DNA of 64,000 nt from Candidatus Enterousia sp. (GCA_045617905.1 JAZLJO010000014.1:516-64515), one strand, 5' to 3'; shown: positions 7,039-56,235, counted from the first letter of the stretch. The notes: generated by a model from the sequence alone, not told the origin. Numbers and translations: made by a program.

Positions 7039-7365
7039 TTATTTCTTTTTAACAACTTTCTTTGTAACTGGTTTTGCAGCAACTTTCTTTGCAGCTGGTT
7101 TCACAGCGGCTTTCTTTGCAACTGGTTTTGCAGCAACTTTCTTTGCAGCTGGTTTCACAGCGACTTTCTTTGCAGCTGGTTTTACAGCGGCTTTCTTTGC
7201 AACTGGTTTTTCTGCAACTTTCTTTGCAGCTGGTTTTACAGCGGCTTTCTTTGCAACTGGTTTTGCAGCGGCTTTCTTTGCAGCTGGTTTTTCTGCAACT
7301 TTCTTTGCGGCTGGTTTTTCTGCAACAGTTTTCTTAGATGCAGATCTTAAGAATGAAAAAGCCAT
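7039..7365 (-). CDS. Lys/Ala-rich histone H1-like basic protein (AKKPAAKK repeats)
   Basis: The 108-aa product is almost entirely A-K-K-(V/A)-A-x-K-P-(V/A) repeats. A strong SD (AAAGGAGAG) precedes the ATG. The composition resembles bacterial H1-like nucleoid proteins (AlgP/BpH1/Hc-type). Confidence 0.8.
   Translation of the reverse strand: MAFSFLRSASKKTVAEKPAAKKVAEKPAAKKAAAKPVAKKAAVKPAAKKVAEKPVAKKAAVKPAAKKVAVKPAAKKVAAKPVAKKAAVKPAAKKVAAKPVTKKVVKKK
7050..7330. repeat. imperfect tandem DNA repeats (24/48-bp periodicity) inside the H1-like gene
   Basis: The units ctttctttgcagctggttt(t/c)acagcg / ctttctttgcaactggttttgcagc recur head to tail. Confidence 0.8.
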
Positions 7366-8073: not shown

Positions 8074-8514
8074 TCATTCACCAACCGACCCGAACAAAGA
8101 ATCACGAAATGCGGTTATAAGCAAAGCTCTATTTTGACAGAGCTTAGGACAAGTGCTAGTGTTATCTGCTGCAATTTGACGTAAAATATTCACCCAGCCT
8201 GACTCCATTGGGTGCGTCATCTTGCACCAACAGCGCCGACCTGTTGTTTCGCCTCCAACCGCATCTAAGTCTTTTCTCACCGTATAATTATCTCCACTAC
8301 CTGATATCGCTAAATCTGCTGCTACCCCCGACACAGCACCATAACTAAATTCTACATTCCATGTTCCGTTTTCATCACTATATGAACCCGATTTCCCGTT
8401 TTGACTGGGGTCCAATGCGATTACTATCACATCTTCTTTGGCGCATAACGATGTTGCATTTGCACCAAACACACCAAAAAACGACAAAAACATACATATC
8501 ATCAACTTTTTCAT
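8074..8514 (-). CDS. small secreted Cys-containing protein, paralog 1
   Basis: Start reassigned to MKKLMICMFLSFFGVFGANA (a signal peptide) after the AAAGGGGAAAAA SD. It shares LC.K, C(W/F)CKM and NTS.C..C blocks with the next gene. Confidence 0.6.
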   Translation of the reverse strand: MKKLMICMFLSFFGVFGANATSLCAKEDVIVIALDPSQNGKSGSYSDENGTWNVEFSYGAVSGVAADLAISGSGDNYTVRKDLDAVGGETTGRRCWCKMTHPMESGWVNILRQIAADNTSTCPKLCQNRALLITAFRDSLFGSVGE

Positions 8515-8530: not shown

Positions 8531-8956
8531 TTACCATATCGATTCATATATCGCACTTCTGTATACTGATTTTTCGGCAATTTCAATGGCACAATCTTTT
8601 GCACAATTATTTGCACACGACGTATTATCATTATACGTTTTTATAAACACAAAATACGATGCCGCAGGTAACTTCATTTTGCAAAAACAGTTCGAACCTT
8701 CATCTTCGGTATCCGCAACCCCCGTATTTACAATACCATATCCGGCCCCAGGCATGTTCGTACATAACCCTTTGCCCTTTACATTTGTTCCATCGGACAT
8801 TTTTATTTCCCAATAATTACCTGTTACCGACTTAACTTCACCACCAACGCTTTTTCTTAAAATAGCAACCGCTGTATTCGTTTTTTTACACAGCGTTACC
8901 CCATAAACATGCGTATTCATAAATATCAGTAAATATATGCATATTATTTTTTTCAT
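8531..8956 (-). CDS. small secreted Cys-containing protein, paralog 2
   Basis: Start reassigned to MKKIICIYLLIFMNTHVYG after the AAAGGGGGAAAA SD. It is a paralog of 8074-8514. Confidence 0.6.
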   Translation of the reverse strand: MKKIICIYLLIFMNTHVYGVTLCKKTNTAVAILRKSVGGEVKSVTGNYWEIKMSDGTNVKGKGLCTNMPGAGYGIVNTGVADTEDEGSNCFCKMKLPAASYFVFIKTYNDNTSCANNCAKDCAIEIAEKSVYRSAIYESIW

Positions 8957-8970
8957 TTTTCCCCCTTTGA

Positions 8971-9704
8971 CTATTTTACTACATGATAGCTTTTGCCATC
9001 TTCGGTCCGGATATTTAATGTCCCACGCCCAGTCCCAGGTAACAAATTTACATAACATACGTTTTCTCCAAAACCAACGTTCAATGACGGCGCTATTTGT
9101 TTTTCTGAATATATTGGATATTTATATGTTTCACCTGTTCCATTCTTTATGTTAAAACTTTGCGCACCATGACCGCATAATGAACCACATGTCCCCAATT
9201 CTGTGTACACGCCACCATCGCACATAATAACACAGGTCTTTATGTCATCTGTTACCGCAAATCCGTATGAATCACAGACCGTATCTATTATTTCATAGTT
9301 TTCATATCCATTGGGACATGTATCTTCACTGGGGGCAACTATGACGTCACTGCTGACGATGGCATTGTACAAACCATCCGGACAATTACCCTTTCCATAA
9401 CTTTTACATGTCCCAGATACCATATATTGACCATCGGGACATAATATCGCATCCGTAACCATGGGCTTTACATAATCATTTGTTATTTTATAAATATCAT
9501 AACCATCGGGACATTCACCATCTGGGGCAAATATAAATGTTCCCGACACCAATTTGTCAACAATCAAATATCCATCAAAACACGAATCCAGGGCGTACGA
9601 AACATTCGAAAACAATAAAACACATGAAAAATACAGAATTTTTATCCCGGCAGAACTATACCTCTCTCTCTCTCTAGAGTTCCGCGGGTTACAGTGTTTC
9701 GCAT
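8971..9704 (-). CDS. secreted C-P-(D/N)-G-x-Y repeat protein, out of frame at an (AG)7 tract (candidate phase-variable gene, currently OFF)
   Basis: A promoter, SD and ATG at 9704 are followed by (AG)7. The ATG frame stops at 9644-9642. The long ORF (9645 to 8971) is offset by 1 nt and encodes the signal peptide KILYFSCVLLFSNVSYA, but has no ATG/GTG start of its own. Confidence 0.6.
9662..9675 (-). repeat. (AG)7 dinucleotide tract, written (CT)7 on the plus strand
   Basis: Read directly from the sequence: cc tctctctctctct agag. Confidence 0.95.
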
Positions 9705-9726
9705 TTCTTTCCTTTTCCTTGGCTTA

Positions 9727-9755
9727 ACAATAGTAAATAATCCATTTTTTGTCAA
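9727..9755 (-). promoter_or_regulatory. near-consensus sigma70 promoter for the (AG)7 gene
   Basis: On the minus strand: TTGACA (9755-9750), an exactly 17-nt spacer and TATTGT (9732-9727), about 20 nt upstream of the AAGGAAAAGGAAAG SD and the ATG at 9704. Confidence 0.55.
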
Positions 9756-9795
9756 AGCTTTTCTGGTGACATGTCATCTTTGGGTTTTAATAATT

Positions 9796-10734
9796 TTACC
9801 GCTGCTTTTTTTCATCCATAAATGATTCATTCGGAATATCTGGGGCTGTTTTCACCATATCAGTCGTAATTTCCGTTTCTGCAACAACATCTTTTTCATC
9901 TACATTTTTTATATCATCCACATTATTGTCTAACGTATTATTTGACCACGTTTGCATAATCTTCAAATTCGCAATTTGCAACATATCACGTTCCAATATA
10001 ACCGCAATATATGCATTGATATTATTAAAATTCGGGGTTTCACCTTCACATTCAGACAACACACGTGAAATCAAATCCGCCACATCAGAATCTGCCGTTT
10101 CCAAACGTTTTTTTAACCAATCGACCAATACATCTACACATTCCCCATCACCGGTCAGCATACAAAATCCACGTCCGTCTTTATCAATTACAAAACGAGA
10201 ACCTGTTGGACATATACAACGTCCAGCCCCATCTGGATATTTCGCATTATCTGGGATAAAAACCGCATCACGAATATTACAACACGCACGTCCAATTGTT
10301 GTTTCCCGACGCGACACACATGTTAACGGAGGCTTTTTTTTCTGCTTTGCTGTTGCATTATCAACACATCTGTTTCCATTCCAAAACACAGATTTATTTA
10401 TCAATCTACGCTTACATTCCAAATACTGTTGCAATTTGGAATTATTTAAACATTGAAAACATTGCGGTGTTTTTTTCCAAACACTGTCACTGATTATATA
10501 CGACCCATTGTTTTTTGGATCGGAATATATCATATCACGGGTTATATCAATTTCACGTCCCGCGTTTTCCGTTTCAGCAACGTAGACCAACAACCCATTT
10601 TTACATCCTATATTTTCATCAATACCATTTAACCAAAAATTATTTAAACCCGTAACATCACATACACGGTCTGCAAATGCAGTACGCACCAACAAAAAAC
10701 AAATAAAAAATAAACGGTTATAATGTATGTACAA
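9796..10734 (-). CDS. secreted Cys-rich protein
   Basis: 312-aa ORF with a TTG start after GAGGGG, the signal-like N-terminus YNRLFFICFLLVRTAFA, and many Cys residues (CFQC, CCNI, CICP). Confidence 0.55.
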   Translation of the reverse strand: MYIHYNRLFFICFLLVRTAFADRVCDVTGLNNFWLNGIDENIGCKNGLLVYVAETENAGREIDITRDMIYSDPKNNGSYIISDSVWKKTPQCFQCLNNSKLQQYLECKRRLINKSVFWNGNRCVDNATAKQKKKPPLTCVSRRETTIGRACCNIRDAVFIPDNAKYPDGAGRCICPTGSRFVIDKDGRGFCMLTGDGECVDVLVDWLKKRLETADSDVADLISRVLSECEGETPNFNNINAYIAVILERDMLQIANLKIMQTWSNNTLDNNVDDIKNVDEKDVVAETEITTDMVKTAPDIPNESFMDEKKQR

Positions 10735-11548: not shown

Positions 11549-11912
11549 ATTTGTGTCGCAATTGATAAATCGCGGTATCAACCGCATGTGTCGAGGCATC
11601 CGGCGAATACCCCAGTGCAACTTTTAAATCATTTGCACCAACACCACCGCTTTTATCCAATATGGCAATAATCTGTTCCTGCATTGGTGACAATGACACC
11701 GGACGACCAAAAATTTTACGAATAATCTTTGAACGGTCCATGGCATTTAATACCGCAATCTGCAAATCCATAATATCAACCGGCCGCGGTATATCTAAAA
11801 CATCCATATTTACATCGGCAGTATTTGGCACATCCAACACAACCGCCCCCAAATCAACCAAAATTTGTCGCCAAAACACATCGGATGAAAAAATTCTAAT
11901 TCCGTCAAACAT
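11493..11912 (-). CDS. winged-helix (OmpR/PhoB C-terminal-type) DNA-binding protein without a receiver domain
   Basis: The C-terminal LSPMQEQIIAILDKSGG...HAVDTAIYQLRHKYGRDFI pattern is typical of trans_reg_C domains. Start chosen at MFDGIRIF. Confidence 0.5.
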   Translation of the reverse strand: MFDGIRIFSSDVFWRQILVDLGAVVLDVPNTADVNMDVLDIPRPVDIMDLQIAVLNAMDRSKIIRKIFGRPVSLSPMQEQIIAILDKSGGVGANDLKVALGYSPDASTHAVDTAIYQLRHKYGRDFILQNDGIYTIGRI

Positions 11913-12726: not shown

Positions 12727-13308
12727 ATGGCATTAATACCAATGGTTATCGAAGAATCACCACGTGGTGAACGTTCGTTTGATATTTATTCACGTTTATT
12801 ACGTGATCGTATCGTTATGATTTGTGGTCAAATCGAACCAAATATGGCAAACAGTATCGTTGCACAGTTATTGTTTTTGGAATCTGAAAACCCAAATGCA
12901 GAAATTTCTGTTTATATCAACAGCCCTGGCGGTGACGTCAGTGCAGGTTGGGCAATTATGGATACAATGCAATATATAAAATCACCTGTATCAACGATTG
13001 GTATGGGTTTGGTGGCATCCATGGGGTCTGTTTTATTGGCAGCTGGAACCAAAGGCAAACGTTTTGCACTACCAAACACCAGTATCATGATTCATCAACC
13101 ACTTAGTGGTTTTGAAGGTCAGGTAACTGATATGGAAATTCGTATGCGCGAAGCACAACGTACAAAACAAACGTTAATTCGTCAAATGTCAGATTTTACA
13201 GGACGCGATGAACAAGAATTGTTCAATGCAATGGAACGTGATAATTGGATGCAACCTGAACAGGCCAAAGAATTTGGTTTGATTGATGGTGTTTTGCAAC
13301 GTAAATAA
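12727..13308 (+). CDS. clpP: ATP-dependent Clp protease proteolytic subunit
   Basis: [16 protein letters not shown], the GLVASMGS catalytic Ser context and IMIHQP for the His. Full length, 193 aa. Confidence 0.97.
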
Positions 13309-14638: not shown

Positions 14639-16849
14639 TCACATAAAATTCTGCGGTCCAACATCAATTTTTATTCTAATATTTACGGGCACTTTAACAT
14701 TCGAAATCCAATGTGCAACCAATGGTTGCAATAATGCATTTTGCCCACCGGCAATTAAAAAACGCATACGATACCAATTTCTGATTTGATATACTTGGGC
14801 CACAATTGGCCCCATTATTTTTACACCATCTGCATGTGGGGCACTGTGTGCCAATGCGTTACAAAATTGTTGTAATACATTTTCTTTTTTTCCTTCAACA
14901 ATCAACGCAATTAATTGTCCAAATGGTGGCATTTGGGCACTGCGACGGGCAAGCATATCATTTTTCATAAACGTATCCCTGTCGCCAGCGCAAATTGCCG
15001 TCAACACTGGATGTTCCGGTTGATACGTTTGTAACAATACCCGTCCAGGAAATTCACCTCGCCCAGCCCGGCCTGCAACCTGAAATAATTGTTGGAAAGT
15101 GTGTTCAGCCGCACGAAAATCCGTTCCAAACAACCCCATATCTGCATCAATAACCCCAACCAATGTTAAATTAGGGAAATGATGTCCTTTGGCTAAAATT
15201 TGCGTTCCAATTACAATATCTATTTCACCGTTTTCCATTTTTGTAACAATACGTTCCAAACTTTGACGCGAACTAATCGTATCACTGGATACCAATGCAA
15301 CACGTGCGGTGGGAATGCGTGCAGAAATTTCTTCGGCAATTTTTTCCAATCCAGCCCCACGCATAGATGTTTCACCACCACAATCGGGACAAACATTTGG
15401 TAATGGTGCAATACGTCCACACATATGACACAACATTTTTCCCAACCGTTGATGATATGTCATTCCAACACTGCAATCAGGACATTGTGCATTCCACCCA
15501 CATTTTTTACATTGAATAATCGGTGCATAACCACGCCGATTTACAAATAACATTACCTGTCGGCCTGCACTTAATGTTTCACAAATTGCATCACATAACA
15601 CCGGAGACAACATTCCAGGATATGTTTTATCATCATTATCGGTCGATAACCGATATTCTGTTGGACGATATTCACGCATATCGATCGTTTCAATTTTAGG
15701 TAACGCGGCACCACCAAACCGTGATGTTAACCGCAAATGATTGTATTTTCCAACAATAGCATTTTGCAATGTTTCTGCAGATGGGGTAGCACTGGCCAAT
15801 ACAATTGGAAAACCAGATATTTTTGCACGCAACACTGCCATATCACGTGCATGATAATTTCCCATATCTTCCTGTTTATATGATGTATCATGTTCTTCAT
15901 CTACAACAATTAATCCCAAATTTTGCCATGGCAAAAACAATGCACTGCGTGTTCCAACAACCATACGAATATCACCACGCATTACACCACGCCATATATC
16001 ACGACGACGGACGGCTGTTAAATTACTGTGCCAAACCACAGGGGGGGCACCAAAACGTTTTTCAAAACGCGACATAAATTGCGCAGTCAATGCAATTTCT
16101 GGCATCATTAATAAAACAGAGGCACCACGATTATATGCACACCATGCAGCATCAAAATATACCTGGGTTTTACCACTGCCCGTAATTCCATCCAACAAAT
16201 GCGCTGAATATCCGCCATGTTCAATTGCTGTCTCTATTGATTGAGCAGCGGCCGCTTGTTCAGAATTTAAAACAACATTGGCCATATCGTGATATTGATA
16301 TATAAATTGGTTATCATTTTTTGGGCGTTTTATAGTTGCAACCAATGCACCAGAATCAATCATTGAACGAACAACCGTTGAACTAACCCTGGCAATATTT
16401 TGAATATCAGACGCAGACATCGCATCCCCATCATTTGACGCAAATGCATCGGCAACCGCCTGACGATTGGTGGTCATACGAATTTTTTCAGATAAATTGA
16501 ATTCATATAATTGTTCCTGTTTCGGGGGTAAAAATGCATCTGGAACATTTAATATCATACGTAACACCGCCCCAGGGGCCATCAACGTCCAATCGGACAT
16601 TTTTTTTATCCACTGTAAATCTGTAATATCCAATCCCATACCCGATATTGGGGTTGCTGATTTTATTTTTTCGTTCGGCAAATTACTGTCCCCTGGCCCC
16701 CAAACAACACCAACATATTGTCTGTTCATAACACGACATTCACAAAACGTTCCAAAATCTGCACAATCCGTCAATCGGTAATCATAACCGGTATTTACCA
16801 CATTCGGTAATAATATTTTAACAATATCGCCAGATTTAAACATAACCAC
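14639..16849 (-). CDS. priA: primosomal protein N' (replication restart helicase PriA)
   Basis: Walker A GITGSGKT, the DEEH box VVDEEHD, and two Cys4 zinc clusters (CKKCGW..CPDC, CHMCG..CPDCG). The start is GTG 16849 or ATG 16843. Confidence 0.93.
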   Translation of the reverse strand: MVMFKSGDIVKILLPNVVNTGYDYRLTDCADFGTFCECRVMNRQYVGVVWGPGDSNLPNEKIKSATPISGMGLDITDLQWIKKMSDWTLMAPGAVLRMILNVPDAFLPPKQEQLYEFNLSEKIRMTTNRQAVADAFASNDGDAMSASDIQNIARVSSTVVRSMIDSGALVATIKRPKNDNQFIYQYHDMANVVLNSEQAAAAQSIETAIEHGGYSAHLLDGITGSGKTQVYFDAAWCAYNRGASVLLMMPEIALTAQFMSRFEKRFGAPPVVWHSNLTAVRRRDIWRGVMRGDIRMVVGTRSALFLPWQNLGLIVVDEEHDTSYKQEDMGNYHARDMAVLRAKISGFPIVLASATPSAETLQNAIVGKYNHLRLTSRFGGAALPKIETIDMREYRPTEYRLSTDNDDKTYPGMLSPVLCDAICETLSAGRQVMLFVNRRGYAPIIQCKKCGWNAQCPDCSVGMTYHQRLGKMLCHMCGRIAPLPNVCPDCGGETSMRGAGLEKIAEEISARIPTARVALVSSDTISSRQSLERIVTKMENGEIDIVIGTQILAKGHHFPNLTLVGVIDADMGLFGTDFRAAEHTFQQLFQVAGRAGRGEFPGRVLLQTYQPEHPVLTAICAGDRDTFMKNDMLARRSAQMPPFGQLIALIVEGKKENVLQQFCNALAHSAPHADGVKIMGPIVAQVYQIRNWYRMRFLIAGGQNALLQPLVAHWISNVKVPVNIRIKIDVGPQNFM

Positions 16850-27544: not shown

Positions 27545-27584
27545 ATAAAACAAAATCCAAAGGCGTATTATAATAAACCTTTGG
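27545..27584 (-). terminator. rho-independent terminator after the Cys-rich gene A
   Basis: On the minus strand: CCAAAGG-(14 nt)-CCTTTGG followed by ATTTTGTTTT. Confidence 0.6.
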
Positions 27585-27642: not shown

Positions 27643-28230
27643 TTATGACGACAACAGATAATAACAACTTGATTTAAAATGATAACTTCCTTTGGCATCG
27701 GAAAAATAAGTCGTCGACGGATAATAACAACTGGCTTGCCCACCATTTCCACTGCTGCTTGGGGTTTTATTATCTTTTTTAGGACAATCGAGACAAGTGG
27801 TTGAGCCTTTGTATTGGCCAGACTCGCAACATGTCCCAGTTGTAGTATCAAAATAAACGGCACAATTAGAATTATTCGTTGTACTGCTGTTTCCTATTGT
27901 ACTCTTCGTACACGTAGATTTAACCAATAAAAAACCAGACCCCCAAGAAGGCGAAGTTCCACATGGCTTTTTTTCTTTCAAAATTTTCTCACTTGCCACA
28001 GAATTGAAACATATATTTCCACCACATAAAGATCCGCTTATAGATCCGTCACCTTTATTTTTCCATGAATGACTTTGAAAAGCATCAGTGTATAACAATG
28101 CGGTTGTCGAATTATTAGAGTTACCGCAACAATAAATAAAACCACTTGAAACATACGCTTCTGCAGCCGCCTGTTGTTCCATACGCAACAACATCATCAA
28201 AGCCATCAATGCCAAACGTCGTAAAAACAT
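27643..28230 (-). CDS. secreted Cys/Ser/Thr/Asn-rich protein, family member A
   Basis: Signal peptide MFLRRLALMALMMLLRMEQQAAAEA. The C-terminal pattern is C..G.Y....C..CP......C...... D.KG.(Y/F).F...C.Y. An AGGGG SD precedes the ATG. Confidence 0.65.
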   Translation of the reverse strand: MFLRRLALMALMMLLRMEQQAAAEAYVSSGFIYCCGNSNNSTTALLYTDAFQSHSWKNKGDGSISGSLCGGNICFNSVASEKILKEKKPCGTSPSWGSGFLLVKSTCTKSTIGNSSTTNNSNCAVYFDTTTGTCCESGQYKGSTTCLDCPKKDNKTPSSSGNGGQASCYYPSTTYFSDAKGSYHFKSSCYYLLSS

Positions 28231-28299
28231 CTTTTCCCCTTATACCACACAATATAAAGGTTATTATATATATATATATATATATCAAGCACAAATTTT
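28173..28299 (-). repeat. shared 5' module, copy A (promoter, TA tract, SD, first 20 codons)
   Basis: Identical to 31376-31506 except for 2 substitutions that I can see and the TA-unit number. Confidence 0.9.
28263..28288 (-). promoter_or_regulatory. putative promoter with a (TA)10 spacer tract
   Basis: On the minus strand: TTGATA (28288-28283), a 14-nt spacer made entirely of TA repeats (tract 28265-28284), and TATAAT (28268-28263). Confidence 0.5.
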
Positions 28300-28395
28300 T
28301 GTGCCATAATCCCAACATCAAAATATATACGATTGAAATTTTTTTTGTTATCATTAGAATAAACATGTTATTAATTTATAATAAAGTAATATTAA

Positions 28396-29373
28396 ATGAG
28401 CAAAGTCAGCATTATTATCCCTGTATTTAATAGCGACAAATGGATATCACGTTGTCTGGACAGTTTAATTAAACAAACATTAACAGATATTGAAATAATA
28501 TGCGTAAATGATGGCAGCACCGATAATTCATTAAAAATTCTGAATAAATATGCCAACAAAGACCCAAGAATTGTCGTAATTTCACAAAAAAATGATAAAG
28601 GCCCTGGCAAGGCCAGGAATGTTGCAATAAAACATTCGACATCACCATACATAATGTTTTGTGACAGTGATGATTGGTATGAACCAAATATGTGTGAAAT
28701 AATGTATAATACAATTACAACCCAAAACATAGACGTTGTTTCATGTCATTGCAGTTTCGAATACGAAAACGCCGATACCAAGAAAAAAGAAATTAGGGAT
28801 AAAATTTATTATAACAAAAATTATGAAGGTAAATTCAAATTAACCGAAAAACAATTTGCAAATACAAACGTATTATTATGGGAAAAAATTTTCCGGGCGG
28901 ATATAATAAAAAAATACGGGATAAAGTTTTTACACCAAAATCCCCACGATGATGACAGTTTTTGGTTTGAATATGCAGCGGTTGCAAATAACATTTATTA
29001 TATCAAAGAAAAATTATATCACTATTTTGTCCGTATTGGTTCTATCATGAGCAAAAAACTTAATAAACAAGAAGACCCATATTGTAAATTTGCCATTGCA
29101 GACCATGTTTTAGATTTTTATATTCAACATTATAAAAATGTTACCCATCGTATGTTAACCAGTATTATACAATGTTATTATGTTTTGACATTAAATGATC
29201 TGATACAGGATGGAAAAGAAAACGAAATTAACGATTTAATTTCAAAAATAAATACCAAATTAGAAAACATCAACATTCCATACAGATTGACCATGTTAAA
29301 AAATAAAGTTCAAATTATAAAATTAGAACACAATCAAAAATATTCTTACCGTCCTGATTGGGAATACATGTAA
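28396..29373 (+). CDS. family 2 glycosyltransferase
   Basis: VSIIIPVFN, NDGSTDNS, and DSDD (DxD). Confidence 0.85.
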   Translation: MSKVSIIIPVFNSDKWISRCLDSLIKQTLTDIEIICVNDGSTDNSLKILNKYANKDPRIVVISQKNDKGPGKARNVAIKHSTSPYIMFCDSDDWYEPNMCEIMYNTITTQNIDVVSCHCSFEYENADTKKKEIRDKIYYNKNYEGKFKLTEKQFANTNVLLWEKIFRADIIKKYGIKFLHQNPHDDDSFWFEYAAVANNIYYIKEKLYHYFVRIGSIMSKKLNKQEDPYCKFAIADHVLDFYIQHYKNVTHRMLTSIIQCYYVLTLNDLIQDGKENEINDLISKINTKLENINIPYRLTMLKNKVQIIKLEHNQKYSYRPDWEYM

Positions 29374-29438
29374 TTTTTAAACATATAATATTGAAAAATT
29401 TAATTTTAAATTTAATATAAAGCGTATGGGGTAATAAA

Positions 29439-30383
29439 TTGAAAACAATTTTAGTTTGTGGTGGCACCGGTTTTTTGGGTTCAAATTTATGTAATCGTCT
29501 GGTTGCAGATGGCAACAATGTAATATGTATCGACAATAACTATACAGGTCGTATTTTCAATATAAAAAATTTATTAGCCAATCCAAATTTTACCTTTATA
29601 AATCATGACGTTTGTAATCCAATTGATATCACAGAACCATTACATCAAATTTATAATTTGGCATGCCCCGCATCACCCGTCGCATATCAGGGTAAACACA
29701 GTATCACAACAACAAAAACATGCGTTTTTGGTGCAATAAATGTATTGGAATTGGCCAAACAAAATAATGCCCGTATTTTACAATTTTCCACATCAGAGGT
29801 TTATGGGGAACCAATGATCCATCCCCAGGTTGAAACATATCGTGGAAACGTAAACCCAATTGGGATCAGATCATGCTATGACGAAGGGAAACGTTGTGCC
29901 GAAAGTCTGTTCTTTGATTACCATAGACACGAAAATGTAGATATTAAAATTGTTCGAATATTCAATACATATGGCCCGAATATGGATCCAAATGATGGAC
30001 GGGTAATAAGTAATTTTATATGTCAGGCATTGCGTGGCCAAAATATCACGATTTATGGGAATGGGAACCAAACACGATCGTTTTGTTATGTTGATGATTT
30101 AATAGATGGTATTATTCGCATGATGGATTCAGAAAGTAATTTTACCGGTCCGGTAAATCTTGGCAATCCTTATGAAATTACAATCAAACAATTGGCAGAA
30201 ATGATCATTACAAAAATTGGTGGAAATATTATATACAAAGATTTGCCATTGGACGATCCAACACAACGTCGCCCCGATATCACATTGGCAAAAACAAAAT
30301 TGGGTTGGGAACCAAAAACAACACTTGGTGACGGTTTAGATAAAACAATAGAATATTTTAAAAAGAAAATTTCATCTATTTAA
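29439..30383 (+). CDS. UDP-glucuronate decarboxylase (UDP-xylose synthase)-like SDR
   Basis: The Rossmann motif [10 protein letters not shown], the catalytic YDEGKR (YxxxK), and end-to-end resemblance to UXS/ArnA-C-type enzymes. TTG start. Confidence 0.85.
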
Positions 30384-30473
30384 TATATATTAATATGATG
30401 TGCTATTAAACAGATATAATCTTTAATAAAAAACGAAACATTTTCTTATTATTTTTTTTCATAATCCCCACAA

Positions 30474-30778
30474 TCACGAGCCAAAATAATAACACGTTTC
30501 CGACATCTTAAAACTTCCTTTGGAATCCCTGCCTGTCGCCCCAGCAGGTATATAGCAGCCCGTAATACCAACCGGACTTGTATTGGTATTTTCGTGTAAT
30601 ATTTTTGTATTACTACTATAACTGGATGGTGCACTTGGACATTCACGACAAACATTACCAGATGCCAGATAATAATCACCATAACATCTGCACCCATAAG
30701 CCTCTGTTAATAAATCGTTCCATTGGTATATGTTCCACCAATTCCACCGGTAATATTACATTTTTTTGTAAAATATGT
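30474..30778 (-). pseudogene. promoterless, frameshifted fragment of the Cys-rich family (C-terminal half only)
   Basis: The minus strand translates to ..TYFTKKCNITGGIGGTYTNGTIY* and then, shifted by 1 nt, EAYGCRCYGDYYLASGNVCRECPS...GCYIPAGATGRDSKGSFKMSETCYYFGS*. This aligns with the C-termini of 27643-28230 and 30858-31433. It has no signal peptide, SD or 5' module. Confidence 0.5.
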
Positions 30779-30857
30779 TTAACTATGGAATTATAAGGCA
30801 GATGAATTAAAACATATACAATACAGCACAAAATTATTGAATCAAAAAACGCCCATT

Positions 30858-31433
30858 TTATGACGTATAATTACAACCATTGGTAAAATAAAATGTCCCC
30901 TTAGCATCTGTAAATCTAGTCGTGCTATCAAACCTACATGCAACAATAGGTGCCTGTCCCCCTGCCCCACCTGGGTGCACATTATAATGTGCAGGACACT
31001 GTATACAATCACCACTTAACAAATAATAGCCGGATGAACATGAAACAGACTGACCAGATGACGCCAACATAACATCACACGAATACCCAGCAGAAGATGT
31101 TGTCATTGTAGACTCACACCCCTTCATAATCCGAATTTCTTTGCCAGCACCACCAAACTTTATAGAATTGACCAAATCTGAAGAAATACACACCGCTGCC
31201 GTTGTATTATTACAAACTTGATTTTTACATCGGCCCGTTAAAGCATCTGACGACGCATAAGTAGCAACAGTACTTGATGGGAACGAAAATTTATACGTAG
31301 AAACCGCACTTGATACAGATATGCCTGCACCGCAATTTCCATTACATGCACAATACACATACCCCGCATACGCACGTTGTTCCATACGCAACAACATCAT
31401 CAACGCCATCAATGCAAAACGTCGTAAAAACAT
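30858..31433 (-). CDS. secreted Cys-rich protein, family member B
   Basis: Signal peptide MFLRRFALMALMMLLRMEQRAYA. The C-terminus reads CSSGYYLLSGDCIQCP...CRFDSTTRFTDAKGTFYFTNGCNY. Confidence 0.65.
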   Translation of the reverse strand: MFLRRFALMALMMLLRMEQRAYAGYVYCACNGNCGAGISVSSAVSTYKFSFPSSTVATYASSDALTGRCKNQVCNNTTAAVCISSDLVNSIKFGGAGKEIRIMKGCESTMTTSSAGYSCDVMLASSGQSVSCSSGYYLLSGDCIQCPAHYNVHPGGAGGQAPIVACRFDSTTRFTDAKGTFYFTNGCNYTS

Positions 31434-31506
31434 CTTTTCCCCTTATACCACACAATATAAAGGTTATTATATATATATATATATATATATATCAAGCACA
31501 AATTTT
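31376..31506 (-). repeat. shared 5' module, copy B
   Basis: See 28173-28299. Confidence 0.9.
31466..31495 (-). promoter_or_regulatory. putative promoter with a (TA)12 spacer tract
   Basis: On the minus strand: TTGATA (31495-31490), an 18-nt TA-repeat spacer (tract 31468-31491), and TATAAT (31471-31466). Confidence 0.5.
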
Positions 31507-31522
31507 AGGGTAAAAACATACG

Positions 31523-32938
31523 TTATTTTTCATTATTATAATAGCGCTGAACTTCGGTCATTACAAAATTAAATAACTTTCCGGCCATTGTATCAGATGG
31601 CACCGACCAATTTTTATCCAGGTATGGCATCGCTGCAACCAATATAAAACGTGCCATAAAATGAAAGATTTCACTTTCCAAAACCTGATTGGGACGAACC
31701 GGGGCATTTATTATATGAAAAACTTCATTCTCGATCGCATTATCTAATTTATCCAAAATGGCATCAAAAATTTTTTGCGGATAATGCATTGTACAATTTT
31801 TTGGAAAACCGTCAAATATTGTAACGGCCCCATCTTGGTTATACAGCATATTCCATCCAACACGATCAAATAAATCATCCAAACATTGACATATCATTAA
31901 ATTGTATTCACGCACACCACATTCATGAATATTTGCCCCAATACGTTCGAATTTTCCCGCATTTTTGACACCATCTTTACGTGAATGTTCGTATTGGATA
32001 TGTGTTTGACGTTCAAATTCAAAAAACGTCCTAACCTGGCAAATAATTTCCATTGGTACGATATGATCTGCTGTTCCAATATTAATAATCAATTTTGCAT
32101 CACGATAATTGCGTTGATTTTTAACATTATAAAAACTGTCCCGTACACCCAATACACGATCCGGCATCACTTCACGAACACGTTCAATAAAAAAACGTGC
32201 CTGCGGGACCAAATCAAACAAACATTTTACACGCCACACATCTTTTAAACGCCTGTGTACAGGGACGATTTTATCCAATGATCTTACCAAATCTACGGAT
32301 ATATTTTCATGTCCAGATCCAATTATCCCCAACACGACCGCCGCTGCATTAGTTATAAATTGAGATTCAAATTTTTCACGTATTTTATCACAAACCGCAT
32401 TAACGGATGCATTCCGCCCATGTTCTGTTAAAACCTGGGCGGTTGTATCCAAAACATCCTGCAAATATTGTTTATAATATTTTCCGGTAATTTTATCTAA
32501 TGCCCTGTTAATATTTTTTTGTGCACCAACAATCACCGTTACAATGGATGATACAGACAAATCAATTTTATGTGCATCACCGGCCGAAAAAAATTGATTA
32601 CGCATTGGATCCGCATCCAAACGATGGTGAACAATATATGGCATCAATGGATGAATGTCTGATATTCTAATACGTTCTTCTATGGCACGATCATTTTCGT
32701 AATCATACCGCAAAACCGGGGCCTTTGGTGCACCAAAACATTTACCTAAAAAATAAAAAACCTCACCAAACCATTTCATACCATTTGAATACAGTTGGGA
32801 TAAATATTTTGCCGCATCATCATTGATATCACCATTTATACGGGCATTATCAATAATGGACAGATTTTTTCTGTCATGTTCGGCCACCATATCTTCAACC
32901 GATTGTTCAATAAAATTTTTATTTTCCATATCAGACAT
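31523..32938 (-). CDS. hypothetical protein with a central RelA/SpoT-like nucleotidyltransferase-fold segment (divergent)
   Basis: 471-aa ORF starting 15 nt after the lysS stop. The segment RLKDVWRVKCLFDLV...RDSFYNVKNQRNYRDAKLII...VPMEIICQVRTFFEFERQTHIQYEHSRK parallels the synthetase-domain blocks D.AG.R.I / KDYI.NPK..GYRS.H / E.Q.RT....WA...H..YK. Confidence 0.4.
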   Translation of the reverse strand: MSDMENKNFIEQSVEDMVAEHDRKNLSIIDNARINGDINDDAAKYLSQLYSNGMKWFGEVFYFLGKCFGAPKAPVLRYDYENDRAIEERIRISDIHPLMPYIVHHRLDADPMRNQFFSAGDAHKIDLSVSSIVTVIVGAQKNINRALDKITGKYYKQYLQDVLDTTAQVLTEHGRNASVNAVCDKIREKFESQFITNAAAVVLGIIGSGHENISVDLVRSLDKIVPVHRRLKDVWRVKCLFDLVPQARFFIERVREVMPDRVLGVRDSFYNVKNQRNYRDAKLIINIGTADHIVPMEIICQVRTFFEFERQTHIQYEHSRKDGVKNAGKFERIGANIHECGVREYNLMICQCLDDLFDRVGWNMLYNQDGAVTIFDGFPKNCTMHYPQKIFDAILDKLDNAIENEVFHIINAPVRPNQVLESEIFHFMARFILVAAMPYLDKNWSVPSDTMAGKLFNFVMTEVQRYYNNEK

Positions 32939-42429: not shown

Positions 42430-43866
42430 TTAATATGATTTTGCAACAAAAACATACGTTGGATCTTCTTCATCCAAACAACGACGACTGATTTTATACG
42501 TATCCATCAACGTTTCAAAACGATCATTCGTTGTTAAATCATATTTAATGCGGAAAAATCCAATTTGTCCCGCCTGTAATGCAGCATCCAATGCATCTAC
42601 AGATTCAACATTATGAATCATCCCCTTATTACGTTCACGTGCCGCATTTAACATATCAACCTGCATCTGGGACAATATTTGTTGTACATTTTGCATCAAA
42701 TCTGCGTTACCAATTGAACGTTTCGATTCTTTGCCCAAATCACGACGCGTAATTGTCACCGTCCCTGTTTCCATTTCACGTCCCCCAATTTCTATACGCA
42801 ATGGCACCCCACGTTTAATCCATTTCCACATTTTATCCGGCGCCCGCATATCAGACACATCAACCAATACACGCACCCCCAACGCCCGCAAATCGTCACC
42901 CAATTTTTCAGAATACGCATTTAATGCATCCGCATTTTCATCACGCGTAATTGGAATAATTACAATTTGATATGGCGCAACCGCCGGTGGTAAAACCAAT
43001 CCATCATCATCAGAATGTGTCATAAACAGCCCCCCCATCATACGTGTTGATGTTCCCCAACTGGTTGTCCATGCATGTTGTAATTTACCATCTGTTCCCA
43101 AAAATTGAATACCAAATGATTTAGAAAAATGTTGTCCCAAATCATGCGATGTCCCGGCCTGTAACGCTTTGCCATCTTGCATAATTTGTTCATTTGTATA
43201 CGTATGGTCTGCACCGGCAAAACGTTCTTCGGGGGTTTTTTCGCCCATAATAACCGGCACCGCTAAAACCTGTTCCATATAATCACGATACATCAAATGC
43301 ATTTTTATTGCATCGGCATTGGCAGCATCGTGCGTGGCGAAAACATTATGACCTTCTTGCCAATTAAATTCAGATGTCCGCAAAAACATACGTGGCCGCA
43401 TTTCCCATCGCATAACATTAACCCACTGATTTAATTTCATCGGCAAATCACGATATGATTGAATCCAACGGGCCATTGCATCACCAATGATGGTTTCTGA
43501 TGTTGGACGGATAATATACGGTTCCGTTAATTTAGATTCTGGATCCGGTTGCAAAACCCCGTCAATATTTTTCAAACGATAATGTGTAACAACGGCGGCC
43601 TCTTTTGCAAAACCTGCAACATGTTCTGCTTCGCGATTAAAAAAATCAATTGGTATCAATAATGGGAAATTTGCATTCAAAACCCCACAGGCCTTAATTC
43701 TTTTATCCATTTCATCACGCATTAATTCCCAAATTGCCCATCCATACGGTTTAATTGTCATACATCCACGCACAGGGGCATTTTCCGCCAGATCTGCGGC
43801 AACGATTAAATTTTGATACCATTCACTAAAATTTTCCGATCTGGTTGGTGTAATTGCTGTTTTCAT
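42430..43866 (-). CDS. proS: proline--tRNA ligase (archaeal/eukaryote-like architecture, no INS domain)
   Basis: 478 aa, with N-terminal FSEWY, class II core motifs, and a C-terminal domain ending in the conserved terminal Tyr (..VAKSY). Confidence 0.93.
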   Translation of the reverse strand: MKTAITPTRSENFSEWYQNLIVAADLAENAPVRGCMTIKPYGWAIWELMRDEMDKRIKACGVLNANFPLLIPIDFFNREAEHVAGFAKEAAVVTHYRLKNIDGVLQPDPESKLTEPYIIRPTSETIIGDAMARWIQSYRDLPMKLNQWVNVMRWEMRPRMFLRTSEFNWQEGHNVFATHDAANADAIKMHLMYRDYMEQVLAVPVIMGEKTPEERFAGADHTYTNEQIMQDGKALQAGTSHDLGQHFSKSFGIQFLGTDGKLQHAWTTSWGTSTRMMGGLFMTHSDDDGLVLPPAVAPYQIVIIPITRDENADALNAYSEKLGDDLRALGVRVLVDVSDMRAPDKMWKWIKRGVPLRIEIGGREMETGTVTITRRDLGKESKRSIGNADLMQNVQQILSQMQVDMLNAARERNKGMIHNVESVDALDAALQAGQIGFFRIKYDLTTNDRFETLMDTYKISRRCLDEEDPTYVFVAKSY

Positions 43867-44708: not shown

Positions 44709-45667
44709 TATTCATCACCTTTATCCGTTTCTTTAACATCTGCAATATATTCTGCATCATCCGCATCTTCTTGTAAAACAAACTGACACAACGCACGTAT
44801 AACCTTAAACGGTCCGGTTACTGGCAACAACATTATTTTACCCAACGTTTTCATCGTTCCGTCTTTTTCTTCTATATCATTTAATGCGTTCTCTGTCCCC
44901 AAGAAATGTTTTTGATACGTTGGATCCATATCACGCGTCCGAACCATTACAAAGACATCATATGAATTAAATGGCTTATCAATAAAAACACCACGTCCAA
45001 ATGTTGCCCCTAAACGCAAATACCCTTTAATCAATGGGGTCATTTGACGTTTGGCTTCATCCGCATCAACAAATTCTTCGGGCAAAATATTCATACGTGA
45101 CAATTTTGGATTAACATCCGATGCAAATTTTTCTGGTAAAACCGTTGCACGTAAATTCGCAGGTGATAAATGATTATAATACAAATATGATATCGCCTGG
45201 GCTGATGCAACAGATTTTGTCCCAGCCCACGACGCAACACCAAACAATACAGCGATACGATGTCGCACAATATATTCACCCAAACCAGCCCACAACATAC
45301 GCATCACCAATGCATTTTCACGATATTCTGGTGCCACACACGCACGTGACATTTCAACAATATTACCTTTGTATTTTTTTATTTTTGAAATATTAAATTC
45401 GTTTTCTGTATAAAACCCCCCCATTTTTTCGGCGGCACCACGATCAATAATACGATACGTTCCAACGACACGCCCATTATGAAATACAGCCATATAATCC
45501 GCAAAACGATCATATGAATCATATTCTTCACGTAAATTTTTTTGTTCTTCGGTGGCCGACGCCCCCTCTTCTTCGACAAAAACATCATACCGCAATTGTC
45601 GCACCTGCCGACGTTCATCTTTGTTACGTGTCAAACGTACTTCGAAATCACGCACCTTAATAGTCAT
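44708..45667 (-). CDS. olsB: GNAT-type N-acyltransferase resembling ornithine-lipid synthase OlsB
   Basis: QLRYDVFVEEEGA...DSYDRFADYMAV is typical of OlsB/hemolysin-like N-acyltransferases. Start moved to ATG 45667 after the AAAGGAT SD. Confidence 0.6.
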   Translation of the reverse strand: MTIKVRDFEVRLTRNKDERRQVRQLRYDVFVEEEGASATEEQKNLREEYDSYDRFADYMAVFHNGRVVGTYRIIDRGAAEKMGGFYTENEFNISKIKKYKGNIVEMSRACVAPEYRENALVMRMLWAGLGEYIVRHRIAVLFGVASWAGTKSVASAQAISYLYYNHLSPANLRATVLPEKFASDVNPKLSRMNILPEEFVDADEAKRQMTPLIKGYLRLGATFGRGVFIDKPFNSYDVFVMVRTRDMDPTYQKHFLGTENALNDIEEKDGTMKTLGKIMLLPVTGPFKVIRALCQFVLQEDADDAEYIADVKETDKGDE

Positions 45668-56158: not shown

Positions 56159-56235
56159 ACGTATATGGAACAAGAAACACCAATAAAGCAGCAATAAACA
56201 ATCCCCCCCAAAACGGGGTATTACGTTGGCAAAAT

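Follow-up and report, generated by a model that had tools for sequence, protein, structure and literature searches.

(TA)n spacer tracts as a probable promoter switch of paralogous genes for cysteine-rich, predicted exported proteins in an uncultured gut alphaproteobacterium

Introduction

Repeat-driven phase variation is documented mostly in cultured pathogens (Haemophilus, Neisseria, Campylobacter and Mycoplasma). In the cited part of the work on Haemophilus influenzae, the promoter region of the fimbrial genes hifA and hifB contains a (TA)9-11 tract, and changes in the number of units are proposed to shift the distance that separates the -35 and -10 hexamers, switching the fimbriae (PMC2651432). 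In the corresponding parts of the work on the Mycoplasma mycoides cluster, a poly-TA tract (N = 10-16) is described in the promoter region of each gene of the Vmm/Vmc systems (PMC3053259; PMC2996958), with transcription turned ON and OFF by dinucleotide insertion or deletion (PMC2628566). Here, we describe a 64,000-nucleotide stretch of DNA from Candidatus Enterousia sp. (GCA_045617905.1, JAZLJO010000014.1:516-64515; hereafter the window), in which two paralogous genes, A and B, predicted to encode cysteine-rich secreted proteins, each lie behind a near-identical 5' module whose putative -35 and -10 hexamers are parted by a (TA)n tract of different length.

The locus is probably a simple-sequence-repeat promoter switch, with the (TA)n spacer bringing about phase variation of paralogous genes for cysteine-rich, predicted exported proteins. 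The comparison of the window with its relatives documents the architecture of the module, the polymorphism of tract length, the concerted evolution of the module and the recombination junctions around it. In mechanistic terms, the locus would be a contingency locus, namely a tandem, recombining array of paralogous genes in a low-GC uncultured gut alphaproteobacterium. Each gene of the family would be driven by its own sigma-70-type promoter, comprising CTTGATA and TATAAT parted by pure (TA)n; slipped-strand mispairing would shift n by one unit at a time, and the spacer by 2 nt; and expression would be combinatorial because each gene would switch independently. As a second layer, recombination at the 5' module, at a short motif across the stop codon and at other points of the array would move, replace or delete the variable mature domains, and would homogenise the switch cassette.

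Architecture of the shared 5' module

Both modules are read on the minus strand. Copy B (site 1; 31376..31506) directly follows the gene of a 471-aa protein, whereas copy A (site 2; 28173..28299) is divergent from a GT2 glycosyltransferase gene that starts at 28396. From its left edge, AAAATTTGTGC (A, 28299; B, 31506), the module comprises (i) the putative -35 hexamer TTGATA (A, 28288..28283; B, 31495..31490, where a preceding C gives CTTGAT); (ii) the TA tract, (TA)10 in A (28284..28265) and (TA)12 in B (31491..31468); (iii) the putative -10 hexamer TATAAT (A, 28268..28263; B, 31471..31466), which takes the final two TA units as its opening four bases and is completed by the following AT; (iv) 21 nt; (v) the Shine-Dalgarno (SD) sequence AAGGGG (A, 28241..28236; B, 31444..31439); (vi) AAAAG; and (vii) the ATG (A, 28230; B, 31433), opening 19 codons for the peptide start MFLRR(L/F)ALMALMMLLRMEQ. 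The homology ends at the first base of codon 20 (A, 28173; B, 31376).

With the tract excluded, 104 of 106 positions are identical (98.1%), and the only two substitutions are both coding, in codon 6 (TTG/TTT, L/F) and codon 11 (GCT/GCG, silent); the non-coding part contains none. A 35-nt piece of the module occurs twice in the window against 0 occurrences expected (100 shuffles), (TA)9 is expected 0 times in shuffled sequence, and no tract of (TA)≥5 other than those of A and B is present in the 64 kb (36.5% GC). The duplicated architecture is far beyond chance.

A preliminary description of the window had reported two near-identical modules that differ by two substitutions and the TA number, the order of TTGATA, (TA)n, TATAAT, SD and ATG in both copies, and spacers of 14 nt in copy A and 18 nt in copy B, all of which agree with the present coordinates and content. 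Two of its figures need correction: the gap from TATAAT to the SD is 21 nt rather than 26 nt (32 nt from TATAAT to the ATG), and the shared signal-peptide codons number 19 rather than 20. The sharp divergence of the coding sequences that it placed after the module is equally plain, with proteins A and B only about 35-40% identical (35% by tblastn, 40% in a MAFFT alignment).

Tract length in related genomes

Related DNA is found in only two other genomes, both alphaproteobacterial metagenome-assembled genomes (MAGs), one of them from horse faeces. The latter, isolate Horse_feces300 (JAKSTF01; GCA_024500515.1), carries locus L003, the only match in the scan of genome contigs; where the two are syntenic, it shares about 92-94% identity with the window. 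The second (GCA_045643525.1) was reached via protein P0006, 84% identical to the 471-aa neighbour, and carries locus L004, with about 80-87% DNA identity to the window; another contig of the same assembly, L008, continues this locus and was reached via the family protein P0125. Module copy B is orthologous in position to the modules of L003 and of L004 site 1 (L004_1).

Altogether, the three genomes hold seven copies of the module, five with a pure tract (n = 9-13) and two with a degenerate one (n = 3 and 2), with CTTGATA kept in 7/7. The pure tracts comprise ten units in window A (spacer, 14 nt), twelve in window B (18 nt), nine in L003 (12 nt, with TATAGT as the -10 hexamer), thirteen in L004_1 (20 nt) and twelve in L008 (18 nt). 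A perfect simple-sequence repeat thereby separates TTGATA from a -10 TATAAT in window A, window B, L004_1 and L008, with TATAGT in its place in L003. The preliminary description had counted fixed tract lengths as evidence against a switch and had advised looking for further copies of the module; the same architecture does recur in the two other genomes with (TA)9, (TA)13 and (TA)12, and values of n of 9, 10, 12, 12 and 13 show a length that is not fixed across strains. On each point of its interpretation that sequence can address, the outcome agreed with what it had foreseen.

Since the non-coding flanks of A and B are identical while their tracts differ by two TA units, the tract mutates more quickly than individual bases. 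Moreover, there are two module subtypes with CTTGATA-(TA)n-TATAAT, whose remaining sequence agrees at only about 65%, and the retention of this three-part layout in diverged subtypes argues for selection on the design.

Both copies with a collapsed tract belong to the L004 genome, and one of the two genes is also frameshifted at a G6 run. This second family gene of L004 is split at 11675-11680, where one G fewer restores the frame (…LKGCESLITS…), and the frameshift could reflect an error of sequencing, a gene that has become a pseudogene, or a further repeat-based switch. The third L004 family gene contains another G6 run (12830-12835).

Promoter assignment and the spacing rule

Measured from TTGATA to the TATAAT that closes the tract, the spacer is 2(n-3) nt long, one TA unit adding 2 nt. 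Sigma-70 promoters work at 16-18 nt spacing, so that n = 11 (16 nt) and n = 12 (18 nt) would be the sole permissive lengths. Copy B, with n = 12 and 18 nt, is predicted to be ON at a sub-optimal spacing, and copy A, with n = 10 and 14 nt, is predicted to be OFF. ON/OFF switching of the two genes is an inference.

The assignment of the hexamers is reasonable on several grounds. In a promoter scan of the window between 25 and 35 kb, TTGATA-18-TATAAT of copy B is the top sigma-70-like site, with 11/12 matches, and the promoter of the L008 module is likewise the best sigma-70-like match in its region. Canonical sigma-70 promoters are also found at tRNA genes of the window, including TTGCAA-16-TATAAT ending 13 nt before one of them and a perfect TTGACA-17-TATAAT upstream of a second. 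In a -10 hexamer, the A at position 2 and the T at position 6 are the two most critical bases; the hexamers available inside the tract, TATATA or ATATAT, are each short of one of these two. For this reason the -10 element should be unable to slide along the tract, leaving the end-of-tract TATAAT as the sole good candidate.

Two other assignments were rejected: (i) TGnTATAAG, overlapping the SD, as an extended -10, with a G at the critical last position and an mRNA that would be SD-less; and (ii) TTGTGC, 6 nt upstream, as the -35, which is not conserved in the L008-type modules.

Concerted evolution and recombination in the array

The modules of the window resemble each other more than they resemble their orthologues. 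Against the 98.1% between A and B, the module of window B (tract excluded) is 86.9% identical to that of L003 and 81.3% identical to that of L004_1. On the other hand, similarity among the four L004/L008 modules is only 61-83%, and site 2 of that genome holds a different module subtype; because of this latter difference, the site-1 module would have been copied recently to site 2 in the window lineage. The preliminary description had suggested that gene conversion maintains a common cassette in front of variable mature domains. The excess identity within the window and the sharp edges of the homology (28299/31506 and 28173/31376) are in line with that proposal, whereas the L004/L008 genome gives no sign of homogenisation. 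Concerted evolution of the window cassette, by conversion or by duplication, is therefore supported as a lineage-specific process.

A single recent segmental duplication or insertion of gene plus module, with no ongoing conversion, would also account for the near-identity, and we regard it as possible though on the unlikely side. It gains from the low similarity of the L004/L008 modules, according to which homogenisation is no standing property of the family, and from the gain and loss of whole genes across the array, with a single family gene in L003, two and a remnant in the window and four in L004/L008. It is opposed by the shape of the homology at site 2, which has sharp limits, 28299 on one side and the opening base of codon 20 on the other, with the body of A and its upstream flank unrelated to site 1; a homology that starts and stops so sharply points to conversion over a short stretch or to an exact exchange of modules rather than a whole-gene duplication. 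Other junctions, located at conserved handles, also show homologous exchange at the locus.

The locus is a hot spot of recombination, and the gene orders of the three genomes differ accordingly. The window reads lysS, the 471-aa gene, B behind (TA)12, a C-type remnant, the epimerase/dehydratase and GT2 genes on the other strand, and A behind (TA)10, followed by a terminator-like hairpin, two GT2 genes (319 and 356 aa) and a gene of the PBP1A family. L003 reads lysS, a 472-aa gene, a B-type gene (B') behind (TA)9 and TATAGT, the 3' flank of window A, and the two GT2 genes (319 and 356 aa). L004 reads lysS, a 472-aa gene, an intact C-type gene (203 aa) behind (TA)13, the epimerase and GT2 genes, a frameshifted B-type gene (B'') and gene D (315 aa), both behind collapsed tracts, and a contig break; L008 continues with gene E (202 aa) behind (TA)12, the two GT2 genes (319 and 356 aa) and the penicillin-binding protein (PBP) gene.

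The C-type remnant of the window (30477..30829, minus strand), a third family gene that is 5'-truncated and frameshifted, lies directly downstream of gene B and retains 94% amino acid identity over 80 aa (tblastn); the intact C-type gene occupies 8509-9120 of L004. L004 aligns with the window up to signal-peptide codon 14 (window 31392) and then again from window 30823, and this break in the alignment implies that gene B plus 34 nt took the place of C-type codons 15-78. In L003, the B-type coding sequence runs to its stop codon and is then joined to the flank that follows window A, with the crossover point at a 13-nt motif, ACGTCATAAAATGG, common to A and B; the junction could be either a 3.2-kb deletion or the reciprocal insertion. 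Furthermore, about 1 kb of the window (30650-29650), made up of the remnant's 3' part and the greater portion of the epimerase/dehydratase gene, matches L004 (~8900-9900) at 98-100% identity between flanks of about 80% on both sides, which suggests recent recombination between lineages. Finally, in a low-coverage contig (L002), AT-rich DNA of unrelated sequence leads into an A-type 3' fragment, which may be another truncated remnant.

Several assembly breaks were observed at or beside family modules: contig L001 (1-582) starts exactly at an ATG, L004 ends (13085) 55 nt past its third family gene, and L008 starts 13 nt before a CTTGATA. Such breaks are expected if repeated or heterogeneous modules confuse assemblers.

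Neutral repeats, read-through and RNA structure

Several observations weigh against a promoter switch. The hexamers are consensus matches only, so that promoter identity is deduced from the sequence. Three of the five pure tracts (n = 9, 10 and 13) stand at predicted OFF lengths, a majority that is compatible with phase variation and also with a tract of no importance. In L004_3, a collapsed tract (TTGATA-N13-TATAAT) precedes an intact 315-aa open reading frame (ORF). All the sequences are metagenome assemblies that give one consensus per population, and tract lengths may carry assembly error. No terminator was detected, when looked for, between the 471-aa gene (31523..32938, minus strand) and module B, and the stop codon of this gene lies 16 nt before the module; given this short gap, copy B is possibly transcribed by read-through at any tract length. 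As for the products, proteins A and B have no match in Pfam (above cut-off) or NCBIfam, and the AF2 model of the gene B protein (34 sequences; pLDDT 81, pTM 0.56; with 3 sequences pLDDT 35 and useless) retrieved nothing significant from the PDB with Foldseek, the best hit being a TNF-receptor cysteine-rich domain at E = 3.5.

Taken at face value, the OFF lengths and the missing terminator would fit tracts that are hypermutable neutral AT-rich microsatellites, with the real promoter located elsewhere, by read-through for B and at a weak upstream site for A. A candidate for the latter exists, ATAACA-18-TATATT upstream of module A (28351..28322), and the promoter scan overall finds barely more sites than shuffled sequence (66 vs 52.5 +/- 7.7). 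We nevertheless consider neutrality improbable, since the only (TA)≥5 tracts of the 64 kb both fall exactly between TTGATA and TATAAT, and since the three-part design is kept in the two diverged subtypes. Neutral microsatellites gather interruptions, whereas here 5/7 tracts are perfect at n ≥ 9, and a frameshifted gene stands behind one of the two collapsed tracts.

The 5' untranslated region (5' UTR) of the window genes may offer a way of reconciling a promoter switch with read-through. It contains an inverted repeat, CCUUUAUAUU / GGUAUAAGGG (B, 31440..31463; A, 28237..28260; minus strand), that pairs the SD (AAGGGG) with CCUUU; the 5' arm is CCTTTATATT, and the folding energy is -8.8 kcal/mol (z -2.5) in the window. 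Orthologous hairpins, with the stem kept and the loops different, are found in L003 (3279-3303; -5.0, z -2.4) and L004_1 (8478-8502; -3.9, z -1.7); the L008-type modules are devoid of the SD-pairing inverted repeat. A transcript starting about 7 nt past TATAAT would begin within the 5' arm, and for this reason transcripts from the switch promoter would have a free SD and read-through RNA a masked one. This role of the hairpin is inferred from three sequences that contain no compensatory changes.

It is highly improbable that the tract acts instead through RNA or DNA structure, as a (UA)n hairpin in read-through RNA, a cruciform, a melting element or a nucleoid-protein site: (TA)n can pair with itself, B might receive read-through RNA and the SD-pairing hairpin makes RNA-level control conceivable, yet no co-directional gene lies upstream of copy A (site 2), a hairpin built of A-U pairs alone is weak, and consensus hexamers precisely flank the tract in all pure copies.

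The promoter switch might also be only one part of a larger two-tier system, combining independent promoter switches with exchange of mature domains (including with co-resident species), remnants serving as silent donors, hairpin-dependent translation, and strong immune or phage selection on the cysteine-rich surface proteins. Such an elaborate arrangement seems rather unlikely from the present sequences.

The predicted exported proteins and their distribution

Gene B (30858..31433, minus strand) encodes a 191-aa cysteine-rich predicted secreted protein with the signal peptide MFLRRFALMALMMLLRMEQRAYA|G, and gene A (27643..28230, minus strand) its 195-aa cysteine-rich predicted secreted paralogue. 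The N-termini comprise Sec-type n-, h- and c-regions (MFLRR, a hydrophobic core, and AYA or AEA) with no lipobox, and the mature parts are cysteine-rich. Besides the signal peptide, the two proteins share a C-terminal cysteine-rich domain of ~65 aa, with the pattern C..GYY...C..CP.....C......F.D.KG.Y.F...C.Y., which also occurs in about 30 other secreted proteins of varied length; some of these relatives carry Ephrin_rec_like, CBM_14 (chitin-binding) or CarboxypepD_reg modules. Export and a surface role of A and B are predicted from these features, and that they bind a target or act like adhesins on the cell surface is conjecture.

The family is rare. A profile search of 5.8 billion proteins returned only four family proteins, namely the two of the window and two fragments, and among 1.84 billion cluster representatives, searched exhaustively with HMMER, full-length members were confined to these three genomes. 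Searches for exact matches to proteins A and B, to the epimerase and to the 471-aa neighbour gave no other contigs, and the JGI metagenomes contained no match to the DNA pattern AAATTTGTGCTTGATATATATA and none in a protein-profile scan. In the more distant L005-L007, three copies of one locus (GC 51%), the lysS/471-aa pair is present with a cold-shock gene in the place of the family; the family and its switch would thus be confined to one narrow uncultured gut lineage. The same conclusion, as regards the switch, is drawn from L009-L011, which share only the C-terminal domain and have no repeat tract upstream. These last three loci (L009 2880-2920, L010 340-385 and L011 285-320) display a GC-rich hairpin and a T-run directly before the SD, within a long structured-looking leader that could be of the attenuator or riboswitch type.

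Genomic neighbourhood and other repeats

The family lies amid envelope genes, which encode a PBP1A-family protein, a sugar-nucleotide dehydratase/epimerase and three GT2 glycosyltransferases. In the window, A and B are separated on the plus strand by a GT2 glycosyltransferase (28396-29373) and an NAD-dependent sugar-nucleotide dehydratase/epimerase (29439-30383), an arrangement that is the same in L004 and absent from L003. The GT2 gene divergent from copy A starts 112 nt beyond the tract and has a candidate promoter of its own (28333-28360) outside the module. Gene A is followed by a terminator-like hairpin, CCAAAGG-N14-CCTTTGG plus a U-run (27546..27584, minus strand; -17 kcal/mol for a 61-nt stretch, z -3.35), and is probably monocistronic as a result. 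The 471-aa protein is conserved, with 614 homologues at E ≤ 1e-5, and matches nothing in Pfam or NCBIfam; its gene forms a conserved pair with lysS, which it adjoins in all four lineages (window, L003, L004 and L005-L007).

Among the other repeats of the window, a (CT)7 run at 9662-9675, which the minus strand reads as (AG)7, precedes the minus-strand ORF 9615..8971 by 47 nt; it is the only other dinucleotide run of at least 5 units, and could be a further contingency tract. A 27-nt unit is repeated about 10 times at 7053-7326, with an 81-nt super-period and 85-92% matches, in no ORF of a crude map (≥120 aa); if coding on the minus strand, it would specify a Lys/Ala-rich repeat protein. Runs of G7 or C7 are found at 16041-16047, 43030-43036, 45416-45422 and 56203-56209, three inside long ORFs and one intergenic.

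Comparison with known systems

The mechanism proposed here is already known; what is new comprises the lineage, the protein family and the recombination history around the cassette. No sequence homology connects the window family with hif or Vmm/Vmc; the likeness is functional. As in the cited account of hif, the tract occupies the promoter region and the spacing would change in steps of 2 nt, over a like range of unit numbers (9-13 in the present loci). In that account, one hif tract serves two overlapping divergent promoters, whereas here there is one gene per tract. The preliminary description had equated the two mechanisms; the (TA)n spacer layout is indeed alike, and the part that does not carry over is the sharing of the tract by divergent promoters, since the gene upstream of copy B is co-directional and the promoter candidate of the GT2 gene beside copy A lies outside the module. 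The products differ as well, the hif product being a chaperone-usher pilus of a gammaproteobacterial pathogen, and those of the window being small cysteine-rich, predicted secreted proteins of an uncultured gut alphaproteobacterium.

Within what the cited accounts describe, Vmm/Vmc is closer than hif, with clustered genes for small exported proteins, a poly-TA tract for each gene and combinatorial expression. The mycoplasma genes reportedly also carry a conserved 5' cassette, promoter plus signal peptide, before variable mature regions (Wise, 2006). Nevertheless, the Vmm/Vmc products are lipoproteins of Mollicutes, with a lipobox and repetitive mature domains, whereas those of the window belong to a Gram-negative organism and combine a signal-peptidase-I type AXA motif with non-repetitive cysteine-rich sequence.

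The rearrangements of the array invite a further comparison. Anaplasma msp2/p44 and Neisseria pilE/pilS are expression-site and cassette recombination systems. In common with them, the window family displays a variable centre with recombination handles on either side, the conserved 5' end and a short motif at the 3' side, and a 5'-truncated remnant beside a gene. Unlike them, it shows no sign of a single expression site or of a silent-cassette reservoir in the three genomes. The events in the array resemble sporadic replacements or deletions on an evolutionary time scale, and not programmed high-frequency conversion.

The locus provides a probable, comparatively supported example of such a switch in a gut alphaproteobacterium that is uncultured, low in GC and represented by metagenome bins alone, together with a lineage-restricted family of cysteine-rich, predicted exported proteins described in no database. 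If the promoter switch holds true, the proteins would be under diversifying pressure from host or phage, making them candidate adhesins, receptors or antigens, and the TA count at each site would be a read-level marker for population dynamics in gut metagenomes. It would also represent an independent origin of the design known from mycoplasma lipoproteins, a conserved switch cassette in front of a variable mature domain.

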